From the IMG/VR virus record IMGVR_UViG_3300009648_000002, positions 1 through 35,960 of that record: a stretch of 35,960 nucleotides of DNA. One strand, written 5' to 3'. The stretch is from a virus. A program made the position numbers and the translations under genes. Below the pieces are notes generated by a model. It was not told where the DNA came from. It did no database searches and was given only the letters and a program-made list of their open reading frames with translations. Of the stretch, positions 1 to 35,960 are shown in pieces (position 1 is the first letter of the stretch; each line of letters begins with the position of its first letter).

Positions 1-123
1 AAAGTATTACAACAAACCATACACAAAAAAGGTGCACATCAAGGCCCTTGTGAAGGAAACTATCAAATCAAAGACCCAAGATGGGGATCCTGTGAAAACA
101 CTCAAACTACTACTCGGCGACGA
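1..123. repeat. Terminal direct repeat, identical to 35838-35960 (circular genome overlap or terminal redundancy)
   Basis: The last 123 nt of the window match the first 123 nt base for base by visual alignment. Confidence 0.85.
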
Positions 124-1822
124 AAGAACAGATAAACTACTCAAATCTATTAAATCCTACAAACTAGACCCTGTCATCTCCATACCCTTCCATGGAGACA
201 GCGAAATCTATCTTGACGACAAGGACAACCGGGTGCTGCTCATTAAGACAATCAACATCAAGGGTAAATCAATCACAGAGGAAAGAATAGTCATAGACGC
301 CTACCCTGAAAGAATATCAATCTATGAATCCCCACTCCCAGGCGAAACACGACAAATCAAGATACAATGGATATCACCAACACAACAAAGATTCACGGAA
401 GGCCCAGCACCATTCGAATATCACATTGAAACACTCAAAGAATCAGGGCGTATATTCTATCACAACGTTTGCAGGGATGTCCTGGCCACCATAATAGGGT
501 GGATGGCCTACAAGGGAAACGCAGTGATTGAAAGGGGAGTTGACACACCCGGATTTTACTACAACGAGAACGAGGGAAAGATATACTCAGTCAAATATGA
601 TATCAAAGACGTCACCGCAGAGGATATCAAGGCATGTGCAGATCTACTCTCAAGTCTCTCAGAATACTTTGATGACCCTGTAAAGCTAGCAACAGTCCTG
701 AAATGGTGTATCATAGCACCATTCAATTATGTGCGTAAACAAGTCGGCGCCCCACTATTCCCCTACCTGTACCTCTATGGGGCTTCAGGTTCAGGGAAAA
801 CGAGCGTCGCGAGGATAGGTCAATACGTTTACACTTACCCCACAAGTGAAAACGATGTCGGAGGATCCAGCTTCGACACAGTAGCAAGGGTAGGTCATAG
901 GATCAGCCAATCAACATTCCCTATAATCATTAATGAACCAAAAGCCTGTTTTGATCGTCCCAGCACTGCTGAGATGATCAAGGTGATGGTCGAATCAACG
1001 ATAGGACGCGGGAGACATGAAGGTAAAGTATTCAAAAACATACCCAGCCTCTCACCAGTCATATTCACTTCAAACCATTACCTGCCACCAGATGACGCAT
1101 TACTGCGACGATTAGAGGTTATTAACTTCGTCCAGTCAGAGCGGAAGAATGATGAGGATTCGAAGGAGTTTAACGAGAAATTCAGGATTAACACGCCACA
1201 TAAGAGTCCGCTCATGGTTCTGAATAATCTTGGGGCATTCGCTGCCAGGGAGTTCATCGAGGACGTGGAGCTCTGCACAGATGATTGGAAGGCCGCTGCG
1301 AACAGTATCATCCTGAGATTCTATGCTGACGCTGGCCTGGAGCCTCCTGAGTGGTTGCTTGGCTGGTCAGAGACAGAGAGTCTTGAGGATGTGGACGATG
1401 ATATCAGGGAACAGGTGAGGATCTTCATTATGGAGCAGATCAACAATGAGGTCAGGAAGGCTAAATGGGTTGACAGTGAAGAATATAATGTTCAAAGGGA
1501 TCTTTCAGGGTCTTTCAGGGTCTCTTTCGCTGAGAAGGCTGAGAATGTCCTGTTGAATGGACTTATACCCTATATGGTCTTACATGAGGGGTATAAGGGG
1601 CGGCGTGTTGTATTTACAGGAGGTTTTAAGGATGCTGTGAACAGGGCGCTTGGTCTGTCGTTGACGTTGAAAGGCCTCTCTGACATCCTGGGTGAGGAAT
1701 GGATGTATGGTTCTGTCAAGGTGTCAGGGAGGGTGATGAAGTGTATGCATATCTGTTTTGATGAGTTTGTTAAGTTTGTTGATTTAAGTGAAATCATGTT
1801 AGAAAAAGAGGAGGATTTTTAG
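32..1822 (+). CDS. Replication protein with SF3-helicase-type NTPase domain; true start is at 35698 across the junction (~653 aa in full)
   Basis: Walker A LYLYGASGSGKTS, Walker B-like FPIIINEP and motif C IFTSNHY at SF3-like spacing; frame is open and continuous with the ORF starting at ATG 35698. Confidence 0.6.
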   Translation: MHIKALVKETIKSKTQDGDPVKTLKLLLGDERTDKLLKSIKSYKLDPVISIPFHGDSEIYLDDKDNRVLLIKTINIKGKSITEERIVIDAYPERISIYESPLPGETRQIKIQWISPTQQRFTEGPAPFEYHIETLKESGRIFYHNVCRDVLATIIGWMAYKGNAVIERGVDTPGFYYNENEGKIYSVKYDIKDVTAEDIKACADLLSSLSEYFDDPVKLATVLKWCIIAPFNYVRKQVGAPLFPYLYLYGASGSGKTSVARIGQYVYTYPTSENDVGGSSFDTVARVGHRISQSTFPIIINEPKACFDRPSTAEMIKVMVESTIGRGRHEGKVFKNIPSLSPVIFTSNHYLPPDDALLRRLEVINFVQSERKNDEDSKEFNEKFRINTPHKSPLMVLNNLGAFAAREFIEDVELCTDDWKAAANSIILRFYADAGLEPPEWLLGWSETESLEDVDDDIREQVRIFIMEQINNEVRKAKWVDSEEYNVQRDLSGSFRVSFAEKAENVLLNGLIPYMVLHEGYKGRRVVFTGGFKDAVNRALGLSLTLKGLSDILGEEWMYGSVKVSGRVMKCMHICFDEFVKFVDLSEIMLEKEEDF

Positions 1823-2159: not shown

Positions 2160-2453
2160 ATGAGAAATGATAAAAATGAGAGATTGTGGAACTTTAAGGA
2201 ATTAACCCACTACCTCGGCTACTCCATAAAAGTCAAACCCACCCTAGAAAAACTCGCTAAAAAGAAATACAGAGTCAGCCTAGCCGTCCTCGAAGAATTC
2301 CAGCCACACTTCACACCCACCACAGGTGGAATGAGCCAGACAACCATCGAAATAGGAATATACAGGACAAGGACAGAGTCAATCAAAAAGATCAAAGAGA
2401 TAATCGACACAATAACCATAGAAGACCTCCTCATAGGAGGGATGAAGCAGTGA
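2160..2453 (+). CDS. Hypothetical protein (97 aa)
   Basis: ORF with an RBS-like sequence; its stop overlaps the GTG start of the next gene. Confidence 0.45.
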   Translation: MRNDKNERLWNFKELTHYLGYSIKVKPTLEKLAKKKYRVSLAVLEEFQPHFTPTTGGMSQTTIEIGIYRTRTESIKKIKEIIDTITIEDLLIGGMKQ

Positions 2454-3214
2454 AAACCATAAGACTCACAACCGACAACCCAGCAGGCTTGCACAGCATA
2501 ACACACATGCTGACACAGATAAACGTCGACATTGCCACCATCCACGCCACACCAGAGGCCCTGACACTCGAAGGCATGGACGGGTCACACATCATCTACT
2601 ACAACATCAGGATCACACCAGACTTCTTCACAGACTACAAAGTCCCAGAGAACGAGGAACTATCAGTCCCAGTCGAAGAACTCAACAACATCCTCAAACT
2701 CACAGGGAGAAACAACACAATCACAATCACCAACCATACAGATGACGAGGAGAACACCACGTCCCTCATCGTCACCAGGTCCACAGAGAGAGACGAAACA
2801 AGGTTCACAATACTCTGCCCTGACATAGAATACGCCACCCCAACAGTCGACATGGGCACATTCGAATTAAATGCGACGATCACAGTCAACACAGACATGA
2901 TCACGTCATTCTTCAAAGACGCGGCCCTCACATCCTCTGACGCGATCGAGATCAAAGTCGATGAAGACTACCTGTACCTCATGACACCTGAGGATTACAA
3001 TGGATTCCATGTCATGTCCCGGCAGGGGCATGGTGAGAAAGTCTATGGGGAGTACTTAAGCCAATTCACGATAGAGAAACTCAAACCACTTATCCTCGAC
3101 GGATTTGAGACCGTTACAATCCACGTGGACAACGAGAAACCAATTAAATTAGAGTACTCAGACATTGGGGTTAGAGCGAACCTTCTCCTGGCCCCACGGA
3201 TCATAGGAGAATAA
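2450..3214 (+). CDS. pcn: DNA polymerase sliding clamp (PCNA) homolog
   Basis: 254 aa, typical PCNA length; C-terminal RANLLLAPRIIGE matches the archaeal PCNA C-terminus (compare P. furiosus ...RLTFLLAPRVEE); GTG start preceded by ggaggg. Confidence 0.7.
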   Translation: MKTIRLTTDNPAGLHSITHMLTQINVDIATIHATPEALTLEGMDGSHIIYYNIRITPDFFTDYKVPENEELSVPVEELNNILKLTGRNNTITITNHTDDEENTTSLIVTRSTERDETRFTILCPDIEYATPTVDMGTFELNATITVNTDMITSFFKDAALTSSDAIEIKVDEDYLYLMTPEDYNGFHVMSRQGHGEKVYGEYLSQFTIEKLKPLILDGFETVTIHVDNEKPIKLEYSDIGVRANLLLAPRIIGE

Positions 3215-3230: not shown

Positions 3231-3800
3231 GTGACAACAGTCCACATCAACACAAACGTGAAACTAAGACGCAGAAACCTTAAAAACGCCGTCCTATACA
3301 TCGTCGATAAATACGGGGATGAGATAGGCCTCTCAAGTGATGGTGTCTGTGAAAAAATCATCGAGGAGGGTCTGATGCACAGTAGATCCTCCCCGACCAG
3401 GAAGATGGTAGCATACACGCTCTCACAACTGAAACGTGAGGGTATGGTGAGGGTGGATAACACTACGAGGGGTCCGAGATTCACCCTGGAACCACACGTC
3501 AATGTTCAAGTCCATCAAAGCCCCGCGCCCAGGACTATCTGGGCGGAATTATACATGGAAACCATCCAAGCCCTCAAAGTCTCTGACGAACCTCTCACAA
3601 CCCATGAACTCTTCGAAGTCGTGACAGATAACGGTGAATACAAGGGATATCATCTCACTGAAGAGGAGTATGTGACGAGGGTCATATCACCCCTCTCCTG
3701 TCAGGGTTATCTTATGGAGATAGATGAACCTGAGAGGTGCGCCAGGTGTTGGGGATACCGTGAGAATGGATTCAAAACAAGCAATGAGAGGATGAGTTGA
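3231..3800 (+). CDS. Putative DNA-binding protein with two winged-helix-like segments
   Basis: Segments such as MVAYTLSQLKREGMVRV resemble wHTH recognition helix plus wing; GTG start. Confidence 0.4.
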   Translation: MTTVHINTNVKLRRRNLKNAVLYIVDKYGDEIGLSSDGVCEKIIEEGLMHSRSSPTRKMVAYTLSQLKREGMVRVDNTTRGPRFTLEPHVNVQVHQSPAPRTIWAELYMETIQALKVSDEPLTTHELFEVVTDNGEYKGYHLTEEEYVTRVISPLSCQGYLMEIDEPERCARCWGYRENGFKTSNERMS

Positions 3801-4393
3801 CGGTGATGCTCATGAAATCTGTTGAATTCGCGTCTAAAGAATGGTGGGAGCTGAACAAGAGAGAGTCAAAGAAGATCGAGGACTCAATAATCAGGCTGAG
3901 GAAGGAGGGGTATAAATACGATGAAATCTCTGATGCTCTTAAAGTAAGCAGACAGCGTGTATGGAGAACCCTGTCAAGGCAGGGTTTAGTCCATAATTCA
4001 AGAGATATGGAGGAGATCAGGGCGAATGTTCACAGGCTCTACACGTTGGGGTACACTATACCTGAAATCGCTGCGACTGTTAAGATCAGTAAGAGGTGTG
4101 TGCGTCAACTTGTCAATAAAATTGAATACCCGTACAGGTGGCGTGTAAACCAGGAAGGGAGATTCATGAAGGTGGGATGGGAGCATCCCCGCCCCTTCAC
4201 CATCTTTGAGCTCCATAAAGCCTACAAGCTACACGTTGAGGAGGGGTGGAGTATCCTGAAGCTCATGAAGATCCTCGGTGGCGGATACATGACTGTCAGG
4301 AGGTACATACAAGCATATGGTGCAGGGGAACTCGATGAGGTCTGGGAGGCCTATGATAGGTATCATCGGGGCGGTGACGGTGTTCCTGGATGA
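3797..4393 (+). CDS. HTH-domain protein, putative transcription regulator
   Basis: Two HTH-like segments (YDEISDALKVSRQRVWRTL and YTIPEIAATVKISKRCVRQLV); start overlaps the upstream stop. Confidence 0.45.
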   Translation: MTVMLMKSVEFASKEWWELNKRESKKIEDSIIRLRKEGYKYDEISDALKVSRQRVWRTLSRQGLVHNSRDMEEIRANVHRLYTLGYTIPEIAATVKISKRCVRQLVNKIEYPYRWRVNQEGRFMKVGWEHPRPFTIFELHKAYKLHVEEGWSILKLMKILGGGYMTVRRYIQAYGAGELDEVWEAYDRYHRGGDGVPG

Positions 4394-4412
4394 TTAGATG
4401 ATTTTTCATCGT

Positions 4413-4435
4413 TATAGACATATATAGCGAAGTAT
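4413..4435 (+). promoter_or_regulatory. Putative archaeal promoter (TATA-like element plus conserved 14-mer atatagcgaagtat)
   Basis: tatagacatatatagcgaagtat is 19/23 identical to the motif at 10741-10763; both lie 10-14 nt upstream of an operon start codon. Confidence 0.4.
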
Positions 4436-4448
4436 GGGGAGTGGATAT

Positions 4449-4772
4449 ATGATATACATAGTTACACGGCATCAGAGCACTGTTAACTGGATTAAGGCTA
4501 AACTGAATGGTAAAGGCCTTGACCGGGACGTCTTCGTCGCAGGGCATCTCAGTGATCAGATGATCCTGCAGATGAAGAAGGGTGATGCTGTCTACGGCAT
4601 CCTCCCCATCCACCTCATCAAGAGGTTGCTCCGTAAGGGTGTGGATTATTATCATATGGTCCTACCCGATGTCCCTGAGGAATTCAGGGGTAAGGAGTTG
4701 AGTCTTGAGCAGGTGAAAGCGTTTGGAGGTCAAATATGGAAAATTAGGGATATTGATTGTGTTGAAGTATAA
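4449..4772 (+). CDS. Small protein (107 aa), possible Csx16/VVA1548-like CRISPR-associated (ring-nuclease-like) protein; identity uncertain
   Basis: Start at ATG 4449, in frame with the track ORF from 4434; motifs IVTRH and GILPIHL recall Csx16-family proteins from memory only. Confidence 0.35.
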   Translation: MIYIVTRHQSTVNWIKAKLNGKGLDRDVFVAGHLSDQMILQMKKGDAVYGILPIHLIKRLLRKGVDYYHMVLPDVPEEFRGKELSLEQVKAFGGQIWKIRDIDCVEV

Positions 4773-4799
4773 AAAAAGAAAAAATAGGTTATAGGTGGC

Positions 4800-4985
4800 T
4801 CACCGATCCCGAGGAATAACCCTCCACCGGCCCAAGACGAGGGCCTTCTGGAGGGCCGTGAATTCCTCGGGAGTGATGTCATACTCCCTGAGGAACTCAT
4901 CAAGGGACATCTTGTCCACTATTTCGTGTCTGTTCAAGGTCATCCCAAGAATATGGGATAACCTGAACCTTTTCTCTGTACTCAT
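4800..4985 (-). CDS. Hypothetical small protein (61 aa)
   Basis: Minus-strand ORF preceded by gaggtgagatag-ATG, the RBS pattern used elsewhere in this genome. Confidence 0.45.
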   Translation of the reverse strand: MSTEKRFRLSHILGMTLNRHEIVDKMSLDEFLREYDITPEEFTALQKALVLGRWRVIPRDR

Positions 4986-5004
4986 CTATCTCACCTCAAT
5001 AAAA

Positions 5005-5148
5005 CTACACTATCCTCTTCACCCTGATCTCGAGGAGGACAGCTTCATCATCCTTCATGCCGAGTGCTTCCCTGACGGCTATGGGGATTGATATCCTCCC
5101 CTGCCTGTCAGGTTTGGCGGTGAAGGTGAACTCAGTCACCTTCACCAC
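5005..5148 (-). CDS. AbrB/SpoVT (MazE-like) swapped-hairpin domain protein, 47 aa; sub-threshold gene absent from the ORF track
   Basis: Minus-frame translation VVKVTEFTFTAKPDRQGRISIPIAVREALGMKDDEAVLLEIRVKRIV fits the AbrB/MazE core pattern (GRISIP...RE.LG...D); GTG start preceded by a GAGG-like RBS; overlaps the 3' end of the acidic-protein gene. Confidence 0.45.
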   Translation of the reverse strand: MVKVTEFTFTAKPDRQGRISIPIAVREALGMKDDEAVLLEIRVKRIV

Positions 5149-5389
5149 CCCTCTCGTCGATGTATTTCATGACGCGGTCGAAGAGTTCCTCTGCGGTCTG
5201 ACCATCCTCATAGCTGAGCCAGTGGATGGCTACTGAGTCTTCGTCGAGTTCCTCTGGGTAGTAGAAGTCCTCAACGAGTTTGAGGGCATCCTCAAAGGCC
5301 ATCTCAGCTTCCTCGTATTCTTCCAGGATTTCATCTTTGAGTTCATTGGCGAGCTGGATGATCTCCAGCTCCTCTTTTGTTCTTTTCAT
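5132..5389 (-). CDS. Highly acidic small protein (85 aa)
   Basis: About one third of residues are D/E; intact ORF in the minus-strand operon. Confidence 0.5.
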   Translation of the reverse strand: MKRTKEELEIIQLANELKDEILEEYEEAEMAFEDALKLVEDFYYPEELDEDSVAIHWLSYEDGQTAEELFDRVMKYIDERGGEGD

Positions 5390-5391
5390 GA

Positions 5392-5973
5392 CTATTCCTC
5401 CCTCCTTTCAAGTTCTTCTTCGAGGAGGTTAATCGCCTCCTCAACATATTCAGGGTCAGCCCATTTAAGCTGACCCCGTGCTTCGAGCCATCCGCATAGC
5501 TTCCTATACTTCCCCAGGGTGGTGAGCCCTGGGGCGTGGATTATTCTGTCGATTTCGTACCTGAGAACCCCACGATAAAAGTCCTCGATGAAGGCTATTA
5601 CGCCTTCATCAACCGGGCCCTCCACCCTGTACAGTGGCACAACCCTCCCAGTGGACTCGACGTAAGCGATAACTGTGAGGGTTTCATCCCTCCTGCGGTA
5701 CAGGTAGAGGCCCTCCCGGATCCATGTCCCGGTCCAGTGCCACCGTTCTACCTCCGCAGCCACAAGTATCCTACCCAGCCCCATGTAGGGCTGGTAAAAA
5801 TCAACATCATCCTCGGCGGCTATGCCTCCGACCCTTACGATCTCCCACCCCTTGGCGTTGGGGTGGGACTCCCCTGTTATGGCCTGGGCGAGTTTCCCGG
5901 GCCGTACGAGGAACTCGTCCCCATTTCTTTTGAGGAGGGCTCTGCGCACACCCTCCATGACGTCAGTTTTCAC
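5392..5973 (-). CDS. Hypothetical protein (193 aa)
   Basis: Minus-strand ORF in the GC-rich cassette, immediately upstream of the acidic-protein gene on the same strand. Confidence 0.5.
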   Translation of the reverse strand: MKTDVMEGVRRALLKRNGDEFLVRPGKLAQAITGESHPNAKGWEIVRVGGIAAEDDVDFYQPYMGLGRILVAAEVERWHWTGTWIREGLYLYRRRDETLTVIAYVESTGRVVPLYRVEGPVDEGVIAFIEDFYRGVLRYEIDRIIHAPGLTTLGKYRKLCGWLEARGQLKWADPEYVEEAINLLEEELERREE

Positions 5974-6438
5974 TTATTCCACCTCCTTGAGGTCTACGTT
6001 GTAGACCTCTCCAGCCCTGACCCTGTCGGCCAGGGCCTCTACCTGGGTCGCTGGGGCGGCGACCCAGAAGTGTTCCTCGTCGCAGAGCCCACAGGACCCT
6101 GCGACGAGGACGACCTGGACCCCTGCCTGGGCCAGGTCGAATGCTATGCGGTAGAGGTCTACCGCATGCTCCTCGAGGAGGTCTTCGTCCTCCTCCTGGA
6201 AGTCTGAGAGGTCCCAGAGGACCTCCCAGAACTCCTCCCCCTGTGGGTGGAGTATTTCTTCCCCACCCACAATGGAGATCTCTTCGAGGATGGGGAAGGG
6301 GTTCTCCCCATCCTGGTTGTATTCGCTGATGGCCCTTAGGGCCTCCACGGTGTCTCCCATGGAGGCCCTGAGAAGGGCCCCATGCGCGATCTCTACTTCC
6401 GCGCATATTTCCACAATTTCTTTTCGCATATTCACCAT
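5974..6438 (-). CDS. Hypothetical protein (154 aa), first gene of the minus-strand operon
   Basis: Minus-strand ORF directly upstream of the 193-aa gene; a TATA-like sequence lies upstream on the minus strand around 6516-6530. Confidence 0.5.
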   Translation of the reverse strand: MVNMRKEIVEICAEVEIAHGALLRASMGDTVEALRAISEYNQDGENPFPILEEISIVGGEEILHPQGEEFWEVLWDLSDFQEEDEDLLEEHAVDLYRIAFDLAQAGVQVVLVAGSCGLCDEEHFWVAAPATQVEALADRVRAGEVYNVDLKEVE

Positions 6439-6702
6439 CTACCTCACCTCATTTTCTTGTGGGGTTCAGGTGTTTTCACCTGTACCCCGTTGAGTGTATT
6501 CTGTTGGAGGGAGTATATAAATGTTTTCCTCCCTCCACCTATACACTCCATGATATACCTTATTCTGGATACTAATATATATACTTTTCTATTCCTCGTT
6601 TACTTTTAATAGCAGAACAAAAAGAGACTAAAACATGAAACTCAGCACAATGTACGCTAAAGCAACAAAAAAAGAACTAAGACCAGGAAAAGAACAAGGA
6701 AC
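6439..6702. promoter_or_regulatory. Divergent AT-rich intergenic region with TATA-like boxes for the leftward and rightward operons
   Basis: AT-rich with tatataaa and aatatatatac elements between oppositely oriented gene blocks. Confidence 0.4.
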
Positions 6703-7257
6703 GTGCTGCATATGCCACGAACAGACAAGGAAGGACACAAAAAAAGATTAGGTCAAACCTTCACAACAACCGACCAGACAAGCAGGGGAGACGTCATCTG
6801 CCCCTACTGCATGACACTCAAAAAAGACAGCAACAAACTCCGCAGGACAATGTGGATCCTCACAGAAGACAAATTCCACCCATTCAAACGCCCAGAACTC
6901 CCACAGATCCTCAAAGAACCACCAGACAAACCATACTACCTCTACCTGACAAGGACGTACAAGAAGATAGGCTGGATAATCATGGACGGCCTCCTGAACC
7001 AACCCAACCAGAAGATCATCAGATTAGCCTGTGACATGGAAACACATACACTAAGCCGTGAATTAGCAGTCCAGACCATAGAATGGATTAACGAGCTCAG
7101 AGAAAAATACAGAATCAGTAAGACGGAGATGAAGACTGGTGATGTGAACCCAGGGAAACTACAGGACATGACCGTCAGGGAAGCCAGGAACCTGAACATC
7201 ACCCTAAACAAATTGAAGGGTAACCCCACATGGGAGTTACTCATAGACATGGCATAA
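6703..7257 (+). CDS. Hypothetical protein (184 aa)
   Basis: ORF following the divergent promoter region. Confidence 0.45.
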   Translation: MLHMPRTDKEGHKKRLGQTFTTTDQTSRGDVICPYCMTLKKDSNKLRRTMWILTEDKFHPFKRPELPQILKEPPDKPYYLYLTRTYKKIGWIIMDGLLNQPNQKIIRLACDMETHTLSRELAVQTIEWINELREKYRISKTEMKTGDVNPGKLQDMTVREARNLNITLNKLKGNPTWELLIDMA

Positions 7258-7278
7258 TATTAGAGAGGTGAAAAAGGG

Positions 7279-7410
7279 ATGACCCAAAAGAAGAACCCGG
7301 CACCCATCCTCGTCAGGATAGGGGTATGGGTGACCATGATCTGCCTGGGAATAGTACTATTCTTCGTAGTCCTGGGCCTAATATCCGCAATACTTGGAGG
7401 AGGCGTATAG
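7279..7410 (+). CDS. Small hydrophobic (single transmembrane) protein, 43 aa; absent from the ORF track
   Basis: ATG preceded by gaggtgaaaaaggg; translation MTQKKNPAPILVRIGVWVTMICLGIVLFFVVLGLISAILGGGV; fills the gap between flanking genes exactly. Confidence 0.4.
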   Translation: MTQKKNPAPILVRIGVWVTMICLGIVLFFVVLGLISAILGGGV

Positions 7411-7411
7411 G

Positions 7412-7759
7412 ATGACTGATGAGAAGACTGAAAACGCCCTCGCAAAGTGCCTTGCGATGACGTATAGGAACATTGAATGGAAGAAAGTTGGTGTGAAATC
7501 AGCGTACACATACTTCACAGACCGTGTGCGCGCAGCAAGCCGCATGAGCACCATCACATCCTTCCTAGAAGAACTAAACAGGATGTGCGGTGTCAGCTTC
7601 ACCCAGCACAGCCTCAAAGACATAAACACACTCAAAGAGAACGAAGACGAAGCCCTGAACCTACTCAGACATGAGACAAACTACGCAGTCCTACTCGCCC
7701 TGGAAGTTGTTGAGAAACTCAAAATGAAGAAAGCAGAGGATGAAGGTGATGAAGTATGA
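7412..7759 (+). CDS. Small alpha-helical protein (115 aa) immediately upstream of the RAMP gene
   Basis: ATG 7412 preceded by ggaggagg; stop overlaps the RAMP start (ATGA). Confidence 0.45.
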   Translation: MTDEKTENALAKCLAMTYRNIEWKKVGVKSAYTYFTDRVRAASRMSTITSFLEELNRMCGVSFTQHSLKDINTLKENEDEALNLLRHETNYAVLLALEVVEKLKMKKAEDEGDEV

Positions 7760-8601
7760 GGACTGTTAAGTACCCTGGAGTGTTAACTGCCCGGACACCT
7801 ATCCATCACGGCGGCCCTGAAGTCTATGGGACGATAAAACCCATACTCACACTCCCCACACTCATAGAGGATGAGAAGGGGATGAGGGTTGAGGACGTCC
7901 CCTACATCCATGGGAATGCGATCAGGGGGTACCTCCGCCGCCTGGTCATGCAGGACTTCCTGGATCAACTCGATTATGACCTCAAATCAGCGAAGATCTA
8001 CCATTTTCTCTTCACAGGGGGCCTCCTGGAGGCTAACACAAAATCCTCTGGTATGATTGACGTGAAACTCAAATCAGGGATCCGCAAGTACATCCCACCA
8101 GCAAGTCTCTGGGGTTCTGCCCTGGGCAATCAGATGATCCAGGGCAAATTGAAGGTGGACCTTGCAGAACCGATCTGCAAGGAACTTTACTGGCAGCAGA
8201 AACAGTACTGTGACATCGATGGCCCTTCAAGTTATTCCCTGAAGGCGAGGGACTTCGGGACCCGCCTTGATAGTCTCAGGGAGTACAAGGAGGACAGAGA
8301 GGATGGAGAGCAGGCGACGCAGATGAAGTACGAGTTCGAAGTCATCGTGAAGGGTGCGAAGTTCTATCATGAATTCACACTCACAGACACTGACCCTGTT
8401 GAGGAATCATGTTTCATCCGGGCATTGAACCTGTGGAGCGAACGCCCCTACCTCGGGGGGAAGAGCGGTTCAGGGTACGGGAAACTGGATATCCGCTATG
8501 ACTATGACCCTGATGCTGAGGCAACATACCTCTCGTATGTCGAGGAGAAGGCTGACCTGATCAGAGAGTTTCTTGATGAATTACAGGCAAACTGGCGATG
8601 A
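7756..8601 (+). CDS. RAMP-superfamily protein, Cas7-like (type III Csm3/Cmr4/Cmr6-like)
   Basis: Three RAMP hallmarks in canonical order: N-terminal TPIHHGG, central VPYIHGNAIRGYLRR (compare PYIPGSSLKG.LR) and a C-terminal glycine-rich loop YLGGKSGSGYGKL; 281 aa. Confidence 0.55.
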   Translation: MRTVKYPGVLTARTPIHHGGPEVYGTIKPILTLPTLIEDEKGMRVEDVPYIHGNAIRGYLRRLVMQDFLDQLDYDLKSAKIYHFLFTGGLLEANTKSSGMIDVKLKSGIRKYIPPASLWGSALGNQMIQGKLKVDLAEPICKELYWQQKQYCDIDGPSSYSLKARDFGTRLDSLREYKEDREDGEQATQMKYEFEVIVKGAKFYHEFTLTDTDPVEESCFIRALNLWSERPYLGGKSGSGYGKLDIRYDYDPDAEATYLSYVEEKADLIREFLDELQANWR

Positions 8602-9251
8602 TCATGTCTCTTGCTGCCAGGATCCAGGATAAAATCAGCGCCTACCTGAGACGATCTAAACACAGAGTAAAAAAACCACTCCACAAGGCCGACTCGAAGA
8701 CAATACAGGAAGTCTTTGACAGAATCCCTTTCTACACCCTTGCAAGGCACTGGGATGCCTATCACAACCCAGACAGATACACTACAAAAACCCTCTCCCG
8801 GCAGGTGAAGGTACCATACCACACACTCTATAATTGGATCACACGCAAATGCTCCACGAGGGTGGGCTGGTTCTGGAAGGGCTGGATCGTCATAGGGAAC
8901 ACAAAGGACCCCAGGAAACCAGCAATATTCAAGACAAAGACAACAGAAGAGATACTTGAAGATCTGCACACCAACTACATTGAATTACAACCACTCACAA
9001 GCAGGAAGGACTTTGAGGGATGCATAAGGAATTACCTGGAATGTAATGGGCCATCCACAGCCTTAGAACTCTACGAGGAGGTCGTGCTAAACAATTATAA
9101 CGCTAAATTCTCAAAGTCAAGGTACATGAAACGCAACGCATTCACCGCAATCATACGTGGCGTGGATGGCGTGGTGAAGGTAGGGACCAAAAAGGCGAAG
9201 GGCTATAACATGCCAGTCTATGCAGTTGATGAAGGATGTGTAGCAAAATGA
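8598..9251 (+). CDS. Hypothetical protein (217 aa), translationally coupled to the RAMP gene
   Basis: Start overlaps the RAMP stop; weak glycine-containing C-terminal segment; otherwise unrecognised. Confidence 0.45.
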   Translation: MIMSLAARIQDKISAYLRRSKHRVKKPLHKADSKTIQEVFDRIPFYTLARHWDAYHNPDRYTTKTLSRQVKVPYHTLYNWITRKCSTRVGWFWKGWIVIGNTKDPRKPAIFKTKTTEEILEDLHTNYIELQPLTSRKDFEGCIRNYLECNGPSTALELYEEVVLNNYNAKFSKSRYMKRNAFTAIIRGVDGVVKVGTKKAKGYNMPVYAVDEGCVAK

Positions 9252-9658
9252 AGGAAGATAGAGCGAACTCAAAGAACTCAAAGCTAACTGTAGAGTGGAA
9301 CTCAAAGAACTCCGCTAAGGAAGGTGTTAGGTCCTGGAGACTATCACAGTACCGCCGATTCCTTGAATCCGATGCCAAGACAAGCCTCCCTGTCACGAGT
9401 CATGACATCGAGGAAGTGATGTGGATCGTGGAGAGGCTGAAACTCTCAGACCTCCACCGGAGGGCTTCATGGGAGCAGGTGCTCCTTGCACTCACAGTCT
9501 TCATCCTGGAGTCCCGGCTCCCCTACACCATCCGCTTTGAGGATTATCGTATCCTCAAAGAGTATGGGGTGGATGTGGGTCTATACGCGGCGGTCCTGAG
9601 GAACCTCCTCAAGATTTACCGTATGAATATGCCTATACAGGCCTCCTTATCCCGGTAG
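9236..9658 (+). CDS. Hypothetical protein (140 aa)
   Basis: ORF overlapping the end of the previous gene; contains an internal short repeat gaactcaaagaactc x2 at 9265-9312. Confidence 0.4.
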   Translation: MCSKMKEDRANSKNSKLTVEWNSKNSAKEGVRSWRLSQYRRFLESDAKTSLPVTSHDIEEVMWIVERLKLSDLHRRASWEQVLLALTVFILESRLPYTIRFEDYRILKEYGVDVGLYAAVLRNLLKIYRMNMPIQASLSR

Positions 9659-9727
9659 TGGGTGTGTCCCTTGACTGTGTTACGTTATATAGTGAGAGGG
9701 GACTATTCAAGTCCCCTGGTGAAGGTT

Positions 9728-9877
9728 ATGTCTCCTTGTCCACAATGCGGGTCCCAGAGGAGGGATTATGTCCCTGAGGATGGGTACATGGTCTGCAAGG
9801 ACTGTGGCCTTGTCCTCGCCGCTGTGTATCCATACACTGCTGGGTTGAGAATGGATCTACCTGAGGGCCTCCTCTGA
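9728..9877 (+). CDS. Stand-alone TFIIB/TFB-type zinc-ribbon mini-protein (49 aa)
   Basis: MSPCPQCGSQRRDYVPEDGYMVCKDCGLVL matches the TFB N-terminal zinc-ribbon pattern CPxCG-x15-VCxxCGLV; ATG 9728 is in frame within track ORF 9662-9877. Confidence 0.5.
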   Translation: MSPCPQCGSQRRDYVPEDGYMVCKDCGLVLAAVYPYTAGLRMDLPEGLL

Positions 9878-9894
9878 TTCTGTTGGGGTGAGAT

Positions 9895-10173
9895 ATGGTG
9901 AGTGATGATATCCTGGAACATTTAGATGCCTTCAACTCCGCACTCATCGATTTTATGGATCGTTTTGAGTGGGTTGAGCGTGACGCTGTGGAGGTCTGCG
10001 ACATACTCAACTTTGGGGCCCTCATTGTCGGAGTGGCCGTCTGTTTCATCCCTGATGAGTGGGGTGGTGTCTGCATCTACATTGATGAGGATGCTGTTGA
10101 GTACCTCCCACTGATACTCGAGGTCTTCATGAAGAACTATGTGAACTGGGGTCTCAGGGAGCCGCTGATCTAA
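9895..10173 (+). CDS. Hypothetical protein (92 aa)
   Basis: ORF preceded by ggggtgagatatg RBS/start context. Confidence 0.4.
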   Translation: MVSDDILEHLDAFNSALIDFMDRFEWVERDAVEVCDILNFGALIVGVAVCFIPDEWGGVCIYIDEDAVEYLPLILEVFMKNYVNWGLREPLI

Positions 10174-10189
10174 TATTGGGGTGAGATAT

Positions 10190-10408
10190 ATGGGTGTTGA
10201 TCATGGAAAGCTGAGTACATACGTTGTTGGTGTTGTGGTCCTTGTCTATGGGTATCTTCTGAGTAATCCGGCCCTGATTGAGGCCTTCATGGCTAAAATG
10301 GGCCTTGCAGGATATAGTCCGCTTGTGCTCTCGATACTTGCATTCACATATGACTATTTCTTCCCCAGAGAGGAATCCTCAGACATTGGGGGCCAGGATG
10401 AGGCCTGA
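10190..10408 (+). CDS. Small membrane protein with two predicted transmembrane helices
   Basis: ATG 10190 after ggggtgagatat; two hydrophobic stretches (VVGVVVLVYGYLL and SPLVLSILAF). Confidence 0.4.
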   Translation: MGVDHGKLSTYVVGVVVLVYGYLLSNPALIEAFMAKMGLAGYSPLVLSILAFTYDYFFPREESSDIGGQDEA

Positions 10409-10424
10409 TTAAGGGTGGTGATGA

Positions 10425-10733
10425 GTGGGAGCGCATCAAATCCAATGCGATGACATTAAGAACCTTACCAGGGACCTTGCTGAGATTAGGGCAGTCCTCA
10501 GGGAGAAGAATGTTATGAATGGCTTCACAAGGGAGCGTATTGAGGATCTTGAGAAGACTGATGATGAGATCTATGATCGTCTCGATGGACTCCATGATGC
10601 CATTGTCAGTCTCCGTGAGGAGGTCTATGGCCTTAATGTGACTCTTAAATTGTTCTATCGGATAAACGTCGCTGTTATAATCTCTGTTTTCACTACTCTC
10701 GCGGTTTATGGGTTTGAGGTTATCCTGCTTTGA
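10425..10733 (+). CDS. Coiled-coil protein with C-terminal transmembrane anchor
   Basis: Charged helical N-terminus and hydrophobic C-terminus (VAVIISVFTTLAVYGFEVILL); GTG start. Confidence 0.4.
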   Translation: MGAHQIQCDDIKNLTRDLAEIRAVLREKNVMNGFTRERIEDLEKTDDEIYDRLDGLHDAIVSLREEVYGLNVTLKLFYRINVAVIISVFTTLAVYGFEVILL

Positions 10734-10740
10734 ACTTCAT

Positions 10741-10763
10741 TATAGTGTAATATAGCGAAGTAT
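10741..10763 (+). promoter_or_regulatory. Putative promoter, second copy of the conserved motif, upstream of the packaging/morphogenesis operon
   Basis: tatagtgtaatatagcgaagtat, 10 nt upstream of the terminase small subunit start. Confidence 0.4.
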
Positions 10764-10769
10764 ACTGGT

Positions 10770-11294
10770 GTGATGATGAAGGGTGAGGAAGAGAAGCACA
10801 GGGAAGCATACGACCATTACCTCGCCCACATTGAGGCAGGATACACAAAGACGGCGAGCGTCAAAGAAACAGCCAGAAGGATAGGGGTCTCCGAGGCAAC
10901 AGTCTGGAACTGGAAGAGACGCTTCCACTGGGATGAGAAACAGGCGATAGACAGCTACGAGATCAAAGAGACGTTCAAGGAAAGGAATCATGAGATCATC
11001 ATAGACTTCAAGACCAAATACCTCGCATTCCTCAATGACCTCATCGACCAGGCGATAGAGGAATTCCGTGAGGGCCGGGGCGTCGTCATGATACGTGATG
11101 TTGGGGACCTGGAACGAGTGATTAAAGTTGCCCTCCTCCTCCAGGGCGAGGCAACAAGCAGGACTGAGAGCAGCGTCCTGCAAGTGAACCGTGAAAAGAT
11201 AGAAGATTATGAGGAATACTTCAGAGAATTAGAGGAGGAATTTGGGGCGGGGGACGCTGAGGATGAGAATCAAGGTGCGGAGGGGATTTACTGA
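10770..11294 (+). CDS. terS: Putative terminase small subunit (HTH DNA-binding)
   Basis: HTH-like RIGVSEATVWNWKRR; position immediately upstream of and overlapping the large terminase gene. Confidence 0.5.
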   Translation: MMMKGEEEKHREAYDHYLAHIEAGYTKTASVKETARRIGVSEATVWNWKRRFHWDEKQAIDSYEIKETFKERNHEIIIDFKTKYLAFLNDLIDQAIEEFREGRGVVMIRDVGDLERVIKVALLLQGEATSRTESSVLQVNREKIEDYEEYFRELEEEFGAGDAEDENQGAEGIY

Positions 11295-33908: not shown

Positions 33909-33972
33909 ACGTACATGACAATCAGATAGGTAATATTAAATATCTAAAAAATGTAATGATGATGTATGACCC

Positions 33973-34014
33973 GGGGGCCACTCTATTTTTCCTACCCCCC
34001 TCAAAGAGGCCCCC
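33973..34014. terminator. GC-stem inverted repeat with T-run between convergent genes, possible bidirectional terminator
   Basis: gggggcc at 33973-33979 pairs with ggccccc at 34008-34014; internal T5 run. Confidence 0.3.
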
Positions 34015-34023
34015 AGATCATTC

Positions 34024-35150: not shown

Positions 35151-35297
35151 CTATCTCACCTCACATATAGCCCATCTCTTCGTTTTGGGCTCTGTTAATA
35201 AGATTGGGGTAAACATATATAAACATAGGGAATATTGCACACATTTATATGCATCACTGTCATAGTCGATACTAGAACTGTTCAGGAGGTGAATTTA
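35151..35297. promoter_or_regulatory. Divergent promoter region with TATA-like boxes
   Basis: catatataaac and catttatatgc elements between the minus-strand operon start and the plus-strand RHH gene. Confidence 0.35.
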
Positions 35298-35697: not shown

Positions 35698-35960
35698 ATG
35701 AACTTCAAAGAAGCCCTGAAGGACAACTACTTCTCATCAGGACTAGACACAGAGGACTTCATCATCGCAGTCACACAACTCGCGCGCGACCATAACATCC
35801 CAGAAACAGACATAACCAATGCCTTAATACCCATAAAAAAGTATTACAACAAACCATACACAAAAAAGGTGCACATCAAGGCCCTTGTGAAGGAAACTAT
35901 CAAATCAAAGACCCAAGATGGGGATCCTGTGAAAACACTCAAACTACTACTCGGCGACGA
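35698..35960 (+). CDS. 5' part of the Rep gene, continuing in frame across the repeat into 1-1822
   Basis: ATG 35698 preceded by ggggtg; open frame reads MNFKEALKDNYF... through the terminal repeat with no stop. Confidence 0.5.
   Translation, partial: MNFKEALKDNYFSSGLDTEDFIIAVTQLARDHNIPETDITNALIPIKKYYNKPYTKKVHIKALVKETIKSKTQDGDPVKTLKLLLGD

Follow-up and report, generated by a model that had tools for sequence, protein, structure and literature searches.

The lox site of phage P1 circularises terminally redundant DNA and resolves prophage dimers, and in the pdif modules of Acinetobacter plasmids accessory genes of variable content lie between Xer-type sites, in site-gene-site-gene arrays whose XerC/XerD hetero-sites alternate in orientation. 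Integrase-less viruses that carry dif-like sites and exploit the host XerCD have been described as integrative mobile elements exploiting Xer (IMEX), examples being CTXphi, VGJphi, TLCphi and Microviridae proviruses, and their sites often have one near-consensus and one degenerate arm (PMC5357621, PMC3091885). Chromosomal dif sites consist of two 11-nt inverted repeats and a 6-nt spacer (PMC8371274). TAA-N6-8-TTA is the most conserved feature of described archaeal dif sites; Thermoplasma acidophilum has two XerA sites, and the dif of Thermococcus kodakarensis, validated by chromatin immunoprecipitation, lies between convergent genes (PMC11840125). Here we consider a 30-bp imperfect palindrome that occurs twice in the virus genome IMGVR_UViG_3300009648_000002 (IMG/VR; the whole stretch of 35,960 nt is referred to as the window). 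Our favoured, though tentative, reading, which falls a little short of being probable, is that this palindrome is a tyrosine-recombinase core site of the Xer/dif or lox type that would serve resolution or circularisation, integration or cassette exchange.

Anatomy of the two sites

A preliminary description of the window, made from the sequence alone, had singled out two 23-mers, TATAGACATATATAGCGAAGTAT at 4413-4435 and TATAGTGTAATATAGCGAAGTAT at 10741-10763, as a virus-specific promoter or regulator-binding element. Both are present as it said, agreeing at 19 of 23 positions and sharing the identical 14-mer ATATAGCGAAGTAT, and the distances to the start codons are also right, with the ATG at 4449 lying 14 nt after the first motif and that at 10773 lying 10 nt after the second. 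The genes that follow are indeed a Csx16-like gene (Cas_VVA1548, Pfam 3.5e-29) and the small terminase. Placing the motifs at the heads of two operons holds for the unit led by the small terminase gene (terS), but the unit at site 1 is a single gene, Csx16, which is followed by a convergent minus-strand operon (4800-6438). The proposed partial copies near 35164 and 2146 have only 7-8 nt in common with the motif, which is chance level.

Each 23-mer is the right two-thirds of the palindrome, which is built of two 12-bp inverted arms and a 6-bp spacer and was recognised from opposite-strand matches to a relaxed pattern and from close relatives. Site 1 (4405-4434) reads TTCATCGTTATA-GACATA-TATAGCGAAGTA and site 2 (10733-10762) reads AACTTCATTATA-GTGTAA-TATAGCGAAGTA, and all four mismatches between the 23-mers fall inside the spacer. 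The TATA look of the motif comes from TTATA/TATAA pentamers that belong to the conserved arm consensus. The features at and around the sites are as follows.

3797..4393, + strand: gene with three HTH_23 domains (Pfam), upstream of site 1
4402..4406, + strand: run of five T just before site 1, resembling an archaeal oligo-T terminator; putative terminator
4405..4416: left arm of site 1, TTCATCGTTATA, 10/12 to the consensus TACTTCGTTATA; identical in L200, L203, L204 and L207
4417..4422: spacer of site 1, GACATA, which is TAAACA in close relatives; the mismatches to site 2 lie here
4423..4434: right arm of site 1, TATAGCGAAGTA, 11/12 to the consensus TATAACGAAGTA; core of the shared 14-mer
4436..4444, + strand: Shine-Dalgarno-like GGGGAGTGG between site 1 and the ATG at 4449
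4449..4772, + strand: Cas_VVA1548 (Csx16-like) gene, downstream of site 1
4435..10732: segment between the sites, with Csx16, a minus-strand operon, a divergent promoter region, type IV-B-like Cas, an open reading frame (ORF) for a TFB zinc ribbon and small genes
10425..10733, + strand: 102-aa gene ending at site 2
10733..10744: left arm of site 2, AACTTCATTATA, 10/12 to the consensus; it overlaps the upstream stop codon by one base, its first
10745..10750: spacer of site 2, GTGTAA, which is TCCTGA in the relative IMGVR_UViG_3300031260_000108
10751..10762: right arm of site 2, TATAGCGAAGTA, 11/12 to the consensus
10767-10773: Shine-Dalgarno-like GGTGTGA, the counterpart at site 2
10773..11294, + strand: small terminase subunit gene, downstream of site 2

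By itself, the similarity of the two 23-mers does not exceed background. Direct pairs of 24-mers that agree at 20/24 positions or more number 12 in the genome (mean in shuffles 2.1), the site pair being one of them; in 36 kb, chance alone should produce an exact 14-mer repeat, and the finding that 0/100 shuffles yield the 23-mer pair is post hoc. Taken singly, a site ranks only in the top 0.16% of 26-mers for dyad symmetry, which is likewise not decisive. What makes the sites unusual is that both lie in the intergenic 5% of the genome, on the same strand and directly before start codons, and that they match a family found outside the virus. When the full window was scanned against the consensus of the host-type sites described below, exactly two sites were recovered, each agreeing at 21/24 arm positions, compared with 0 matches in five shuffles of 1.2 Mb (6 Mb in all).

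Arms and spacers in related viruses and in host chromosomes

The window represents a complete virus genome, circularly closed, with its first 123 nt repeated at its end, and its proteins are identical to those of the NCBI contig JAKOPW010000170.1 (35,844 bp) and of several other contigs of 20-50 kb. Given that its large terminase (TerL) shares 49-50% identity with its counterparts in the Methanothermobacter viruses psiM2 and psiM100, and that its lysis gene combines a peptidase C39 domain with a weak pseudomurein-binding repeat, sequence comparison places the host in the Methanobacteriales; the G+C content of 50% suggests Methanothermobacter. The genes are tightly packed and nearly all on the plus strand, leaving only ~1.9 kb (5.3%) of intergenic DNA. 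The viruses psiM2 and psiM100, the closest characterised relatives by TerL, package headfuls from a pac site and so produce terminally redundant DNA, and by analogy the window virus probably does likewise.

Both sites are kept in the close relatives L200, L203, L204, L207, L216 and L221 (83-98% nucleotide identity), where the element is conserved amid diverged flanks. Site 1 of these relatives reads TTCATCGTTATA-TAAACA-TATAACGAAGGG, a better palindrome (10/11), and it precedes a different first gene, with BLAST homology to the window stopping at the site; the element at the head of the unit is thus retained even where the first downstream gene differs. Site 2 of IMGVR_UViG_3300031260_000108 reads AACTTCATTATA-TCCTGA-TATAGCGAAGTA, so that the arms are identical at 24/24 positions and the spacer at only 2/6, compared with 106/120 (88%) in the flanks; by our own calculation the binomial probability of this excess of spacer change is ~0.002. 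Among the more distant viruses examined, no site was found in the loci of TerL relatives L120-L199 (TerL at most 57% identical, psiM2 and psiM100 included), no common upstream element was apparent among the 20 terS upstream regions read, vir323 has no copy of the palindrome, and a scan of IMG/VR with the 14-mer ATATAGCGAAGTAT returned random single matches only. Four other IMG/VR contigs contain one copy each.

L214, 5124-5153: palindrome before TerL
L225, 2868-2897: palindrome 16 nt before a pseudomurein endopeptidase gene
L217, 5051-5080: palindrome inside a structural gene array, followed by a T7 run
L212, 3459-3488: palindrome inside a structural gene array, followed by a T7 run

A Shine-Dalgarno-like sequence accompanies every viral or cassette copy. 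Structural or lysis genes are common to L217, L225 and the window virus, and when the proteins of 49 window ORFs were compared with L212, L214, L217 and L225, none was found in them except those of structural, terminase and lysis genes. As these are the only genes that the site-bearing contigs share with the window, the binder of the palindrome is probably a host factor. The protein with three HTH_23 domains encoded beside site 1 has no homologue in the other site-bearing viruses and is for that reason unlikely to be the common binder.

The palindrome is not specific to viruses, as the preliminary description had supposed. We searched one genome per species across 185,579 prokaryotic species with the pattern TCNTTATANNNNNATATANCGAAG, which was built from three viral variants only and misses about half of the possible spacers. 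Among the 120 matches listed, ~43 are loci in Methanobacteriales (Methanobacterium, Methanobrevibacter, Methanosphaera, Methanobinarius and metagenome-assembled genomes (MAGs) of Methanobacteriaceae) with the same 12-6-12 palindrome, and the matches listed from elsewhere are mostly a coding motif, IIPAYNEE, of bacterial glycosyltransferase-2 genes. The Methanobacteriales consensus is TACTTCGTTATA-N6-TATAACGAAGTA, and the positions that the pattern left free are themselves strongly conserved and palindromic. At these eight arm positions agreement with the palindromic consensus averages 6.0/8 in Methanobacteriales and 2.5/8 in other taxa; it is 5/8 at the viral sites, a figure that takes in the trailing GTA pointed out in the preliminary description. 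The G variant at position 5 of the viral right arm also occurs in 6/41 host sites. Three complete chromosomes have one strict match apiece and a few MAGs have 2-3, and extra strong sites are nearly absent from 278 kb of flanking DNA.

The host sites carry 33 different spacers, and yet a 28-bp core that includes the spacer GGCTCA is identical in four Methanobacterium genomes with unrelated flanks. Deviations in the arms are not compensated, with the pairs -3/24 and -4/25 varying independently, and symmetry ends at 12 bp, beyond which pairing is at or below the shuffle expectation; we therefore consider that the arms are read as sequence on duplex DNA and not as a hairpin. The neighbours of the host sites are ordinary cellular genes (109 Pfam families), and neither Pfam nor clustering of neighbouring ORFs revealed a recurrent neighbour gene or an integrase beside them. 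Nearest genes at 24 host sites are convergent in seven cases, divergent in four and tandem in 13, as expected at random, and distances to gene starts run from 15 to >1000 nt. Convergent gene ends lie as near as 15 and 122 nt from a host site, so a promoter cannot lie there. The flanks are T-rich on the left and A-rich on the right, which may reflect oligo-T stops facing both ways. Scans of the host loci for Rfam families and tRNAs found nothing at the sites, with tRNA-Lys 120-210 nt away in two loci, and a literature search for the arm sequences returned nothing relevant, so the family appears undescribed in the searchable literature.

Several individual loci deserve a mention. The two tRNA loci are in Methanobacterium MAGs (L236, 3943-4252; L294, 3926-4139), with the palindrome 120-210 nt past the 3' end of tRNA-Lys(CTT). 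The Methanobacterium contig L312 (1-345) has a site, an 86-aa gene, a second site and a further gene, each site lying 12-13 nt before a start codon, and L276 (518-2256) has two sites 1.7 kb apart around a DUF3800 gene; judged by their layout, both arrangements look cassette-like. In L290 (1768-3612; Methanobacteriaceae MAG contig CAVZIM010000006.1) a homologue of the viral TerS (33% identity, E 6.5e-22) adjoins a Cdc6/Orc1 gene, with the palindrome 98 nt downstream, and the site could mark the boundary of an integrated element or satellite here.

A proposed recombinase core site weighed against its rivals

Our case for a recombinase core site rests on the 12-6-12 build, on arms that are conserved whilst spacers are swapped among close relatives, and on the lack of a viral integrase, together with arms that are kept across the order, spacers that differ between sites but are conserved within a lineage and a position indifferent to transcription. 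The half-sites, 18 bp apart, fit the 11-13-bp inverted arms and 6-8-bp spacers of such sites, and the combination of duplex arms with a free spacer is seen both in the 33 host spacers and in the 24/24 arms and 2/6 spacer of the viral pair. Neither Pfam nor an iterated profile seeded with the psiM2 integrase found a tyrosine recombinase in the window or its relatives. The resemblance to dif extends to inverted arms of ~11-12 bp, a 6-bp spacer and an intergenic location, sometimes between convergent genes (PMC8371274, PMC11840125, PMC2958812), as well as to AT-rich flanks, conservation across the host lineage and rarity per genome. Similarly, the loxP arm ATAACTTCGTATA has ACTTCGT-ATA in common with the arm TACTTCGTTATA (PMC4938658), which we regard as a lead and not as a test, and loxP is likewise a phage-borne palindromic recombinase site. 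The differences are also clear. The T. kodakarensis dif is TTTTGATATAATGTACCTTATATGACAA, loxP has a 13-8-13 build, and P1 encodes Cre whereas the window virus has no detectable recombinase.

If this reading is correct, a conserved dimeric host protein, XerA or a similar one, would bind the duplex site with one monomer per arm, and strands would be exchanged across the spacer; the virus would depend on the host enzyme because it encodes no recombinase of its own. Three uses can be envisaged. The site might resolve or circularise a replicating, terminally redundant genome, as plasmid cer or P1 lox does; it might integrate the virus at a matching host site in the manner of IMEX; or it might allow the accessory segment between the two sites to be exchanged, as in pdif modules. 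The two copies have the same orientation and are separated by 6.3 kb, and their unlike spacers would prevent recombination between them. The bracketed segment measures 6.3, 9.5 and 11.0 kb among relatives, whilst the window and L204 agree in a backbone of 29.4-29.5 kb outside the sites. Bracketed accessory genes of variable content and the L312 array recall pdif modules, although mobilisation is here only surmised and pdif sites differ in their alternating orientation and XerC/XerD hetero-sites. The known IMEX cases are all bacterial and are not known to include tailed viruses. The window virus shares with them the want of an integrase of its own and differs in having two sites with unlike spacers. 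The fuller proposal, that a tailed archaeal virus without an integrase makes use of a host tyrosine recombinase by way of two lox/dif-like sites bracketing a swappable accessory module, is more doubtful still, and we would call it possible but rather unlikely.

A number of observations weigh against recombination at the palindrome. Neither an integrated copy nor a hybrid junction was found in ~12 contigs of the lineage, all of them free forms with both sites intact and viral DNA on both sides, and a GTDB scan with TerS found no provirus, small as this sampling is. The archaeal dif hallmark TAA-N6-8-TTA is absent, the junctions here being TTATA-N6-TATAA, and so the palindrome cannot be filed as a canonical archaeal dif; in addition it is virus-borne and present twice, and XerA binding, a terminus location and single-copy status can only be surmised. 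Some host genomes have 2-3 sites, and local GC skew (seven positive vs eight negative) is uninformative and lends no support to a location at the terminus. The site-bearing virus L225 has a psiM2-like integrase of its own, 2.9 kb from the site. Viral copies always stand directly upstream of a gene, which also fits a promoter, and in four of them the distance from the TATA of the right arm to the start codon (26, 22, 25 and 28 nt) is promoter-like. Binding or cleavage by a recombinase is a prediction from sequence; what we have observed is the palindrome, its family and contexts, the behaviour of its arms and spacers and the absence of a viral integrase, whilst the binder and any recombination are what we infer.

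These last observations are the strength of the most serious competitor, an operator overlapping a promoter, with the TATA of the arm as TATA box, by which a dimeric host or viral factor would switch the Csx16 unit and the terS-led late operon. Both sites lie in short gaps at module boundaries directly before genes, the element stays at the head of its unit when the first gene differs, and elsewhere the gene after the site is TerL (L214), a lysis gene (L225) or a small cassette gene (L312). The four TATA-to-start distances are also near those of archaea, where a TATA box has been centred 27 nt upstream of a mapped start and repressors commonly overlap the TATA box or start site (PMC3729527). 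Nevertheless, we consider this explanation unlikely. The host copies have no recurrent target gene and seven of 24 are found where two genes converge; half-sites of 12 continuous bp, set 18 bp apart, would be unusual for transcription factors; the same spacer recurs in species whose flanks are unrelated, but differs between close viral relatives; no regulator encoded by the viruses goes together with the site; and transcripts that began ~26 nt after either TATA would lack the Shine-Dalgarno sequence, which in every copy lies between site and start codon. A known regulator box of this kind, the MsvR box TTCGN7-9CGAA, was rejected on spacing: its TTCG...CGAA dyad and the TATA-like cores upstream of viral genes resemble the palindrome (PMC3729527), but the gap here is 16 nt instead of 7-9, host copies are untied to gene starts and there is no purine-rich B recognition element (BRE). 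Of the earlier proposal of a regulator-binding element, then, what stands is a conserved element of protein-binding type before two start codons, while a role as promoter is unsupported and somewhat unlikely.

The plain virus-specific BRE/TATA promoter with short-leader or leaderless transcripts, as first proposed, is largely displaced by the same host contexts, and we now regard it as improbable. It can draw on the intergenic enrichment of TATA[TAG][AT] (12/52 matches in 5.3% of the genome), on TATAG[CT]G in three promoter-like gaps and on a geometry that would predict starts 0-9 nt before the ATGs. TATA-like pentamers are indeed present at the viral sites and their geometry fits starts at or near the ATGs, with no BRE-like purine tract. 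Against this, an element of this family should stand upstream of genes to drive, and those seven convergent host sites do not; it is neither virus-specific nor present in the more distant relatives examined (L120-L199 and the 20 terS upstream regions); close relatives differ in the candidate TATA cores but not in the non-TATA outer arm bases CTTCG/CGAAG; and the genome's canonical TTTATATA boxes are elsewhere, at 6514-6521 and 35244-35251. A hairpin in RNA or DNA, acting as a terminator, processing site or stability element between transcription units, has very little to recommend it. The palindromes can form hairpins, though weak ones (-7.7 to -8.6 kcal/mol at 37 C; z-scores -1.8 to -4.0), the L217 and L212 sites are followed by T7 runs and host copies are often at the 3' ends of genes. 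However, arm changes are not compensatory, complementarity ends at 12 bp, no Rfam family occurs at host sites, the AU-rich stems would be weak in a probably thermophilic host, conservation across genera is of sequence and not of structure, each genome has 1-3 copies only, and archaeal termination requires oligo-T rather than hairpins. Chance similarity of two AT-rich intergenic stretches, for which the 12 equally similar 24-mer pairs and the expected 14-mer repeats speak, is effectively refuted by the agreement of both copies with an external 24-position consensus at 21/24 (0 in shuffles), by conservation in relatives amid diverged flanks and by the strong enrichment of the pattern in the host order. 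Readings as a pac site, an origin or a CRISPR repeat were dropped, given just two copies, the position of the iteron-like repeats elsewhere (~1.8-2.1 kb) and the lack of an array.

The bracketed segment, the wider genome and implications

Between the sites, type IV-B-like CRISPR-Cas effector genes without an array occupy ~6635-9251 (+ strand) of the window, with a RAMP/Csf2-like gene at 7756-8601, and 4286-8350 of the relatives L203/L204. The segment of the relatives contains Csf1 (weak), Csf3, an N6/N4 methyltransferase and a PAPS-reductase/CysH-like gene; the portion with the methyltransferase and CysH is missing from the window. The ATG of the Csf1-like gene of L204 (207 aa) is equivalent to window position 6635 and out of frame with the window ORF (181-184 aa), which starts at 6703/6712, a discrepancy that could be due to a frameshift or a different start. 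An uncalled 49-aa ORF, MSPCPQCGSQRRDYVPEDGYMVCKDCGLVLAAVYPYTAGLRMDLPEGLL (9728-9877, + strand), encodes a stand-alone TFIIB/TFB zinc ribbon (Pfam Zn_Ribbon_TF, 31.5 bits, cut-off 29) and is 100% identical in L221. Ahead of it come a TATA-like CGTTATATAG, a hairpin (GGGGACT/AGTCCCC) and a Shine-Dalgarno sequence, and from its domain the protein could be a viral modulator of host transcription initiation. In the divergent control region at 6439-6702 the minus strand has a perfect TTTATATA box (6521-6514) and the plus strand a TAATATATATAC box (6573-6585); the region also includes the palindrome GGGTTCAGGTGTTTTCACCTGTACCC (6462-6487) and is likely an early or lysogeny-type switch.

Outside the segment, the ORF listed as 32..1822 really begins at the ATG at 35698 and runs across the circular junction and its 123-nt terminal repeat (35698-35960 joined to 1-1822), giving 653 aa; this start is borne out by the gene call on the NCBI contig, and the product has no Pfam match. 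It heads a replication module that also contains a PCNA-like gene (2450-3214). Tandem or iteron-like repeats (AGGGTCTTTC, AGGTAACCTAA, GGTTACC and AAACCCATCA) at 1496-1523, 1821-1863 and ~2000-2110 surround the AT-rich TTTTATATAT, and this region, in or beside the ORF at 1823-2155, is a candidate replication origin. The gap that closes the late genes (33909-34023) has an AT-rich palindrome, TCAGATAGGTAATATTAAATATCTAA (33922-33947), and a GGGGGCC...GGCCCCC dyad; convergent units probably end there in a stop region that works in both directions. Many genes, on either strand, have the conserved translation-start block TTGGGGTGAGATA(T/G)ATG at their start, and it is partly on account of this block that 4800-4985 was recognised as a minus-strand gene.

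9883, 10176, 32059 and 33179, + strand: TTGGGGTGAGATA(T/G)ATG block
4998-4970, 35163-35135 and 6451-6423, - strand: TTGGGGTGAGATA(T/G)ATG block

Should the palindrome turn out to be an operator, it would point to a conserved host DNA-binding protein used by several unrelated methanogen viruses to control late genes. As a recombinase core site, TACTTCGTTATA-N6-TATAACGAAGTA would be a previously undescribed family of recombination sites in Methanobacteriales chromosomes and a candidate chromosomal recombination site for that order, unlike the Thermococcales-type dif and directly testable with XerA. Genetic work on Methanothermobacter and Methanobacterium would also gain a useful tool, a short lox-like site recognised by the host. 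For the viruses, it would be the first sign that archaeal tailed viruses dispense with an integrase by means of host Xer-type machinery, much as the cholera phage CTXphi does, and the first archaeal, as well as the first tailed-virus, counterpart of the bacterial IMEX elements or pdif modules. It may, in that case, offer a route by which cassettes for defence and counter-defence, such as type IV-B Cas and Csx16, are exchanged between viruses.

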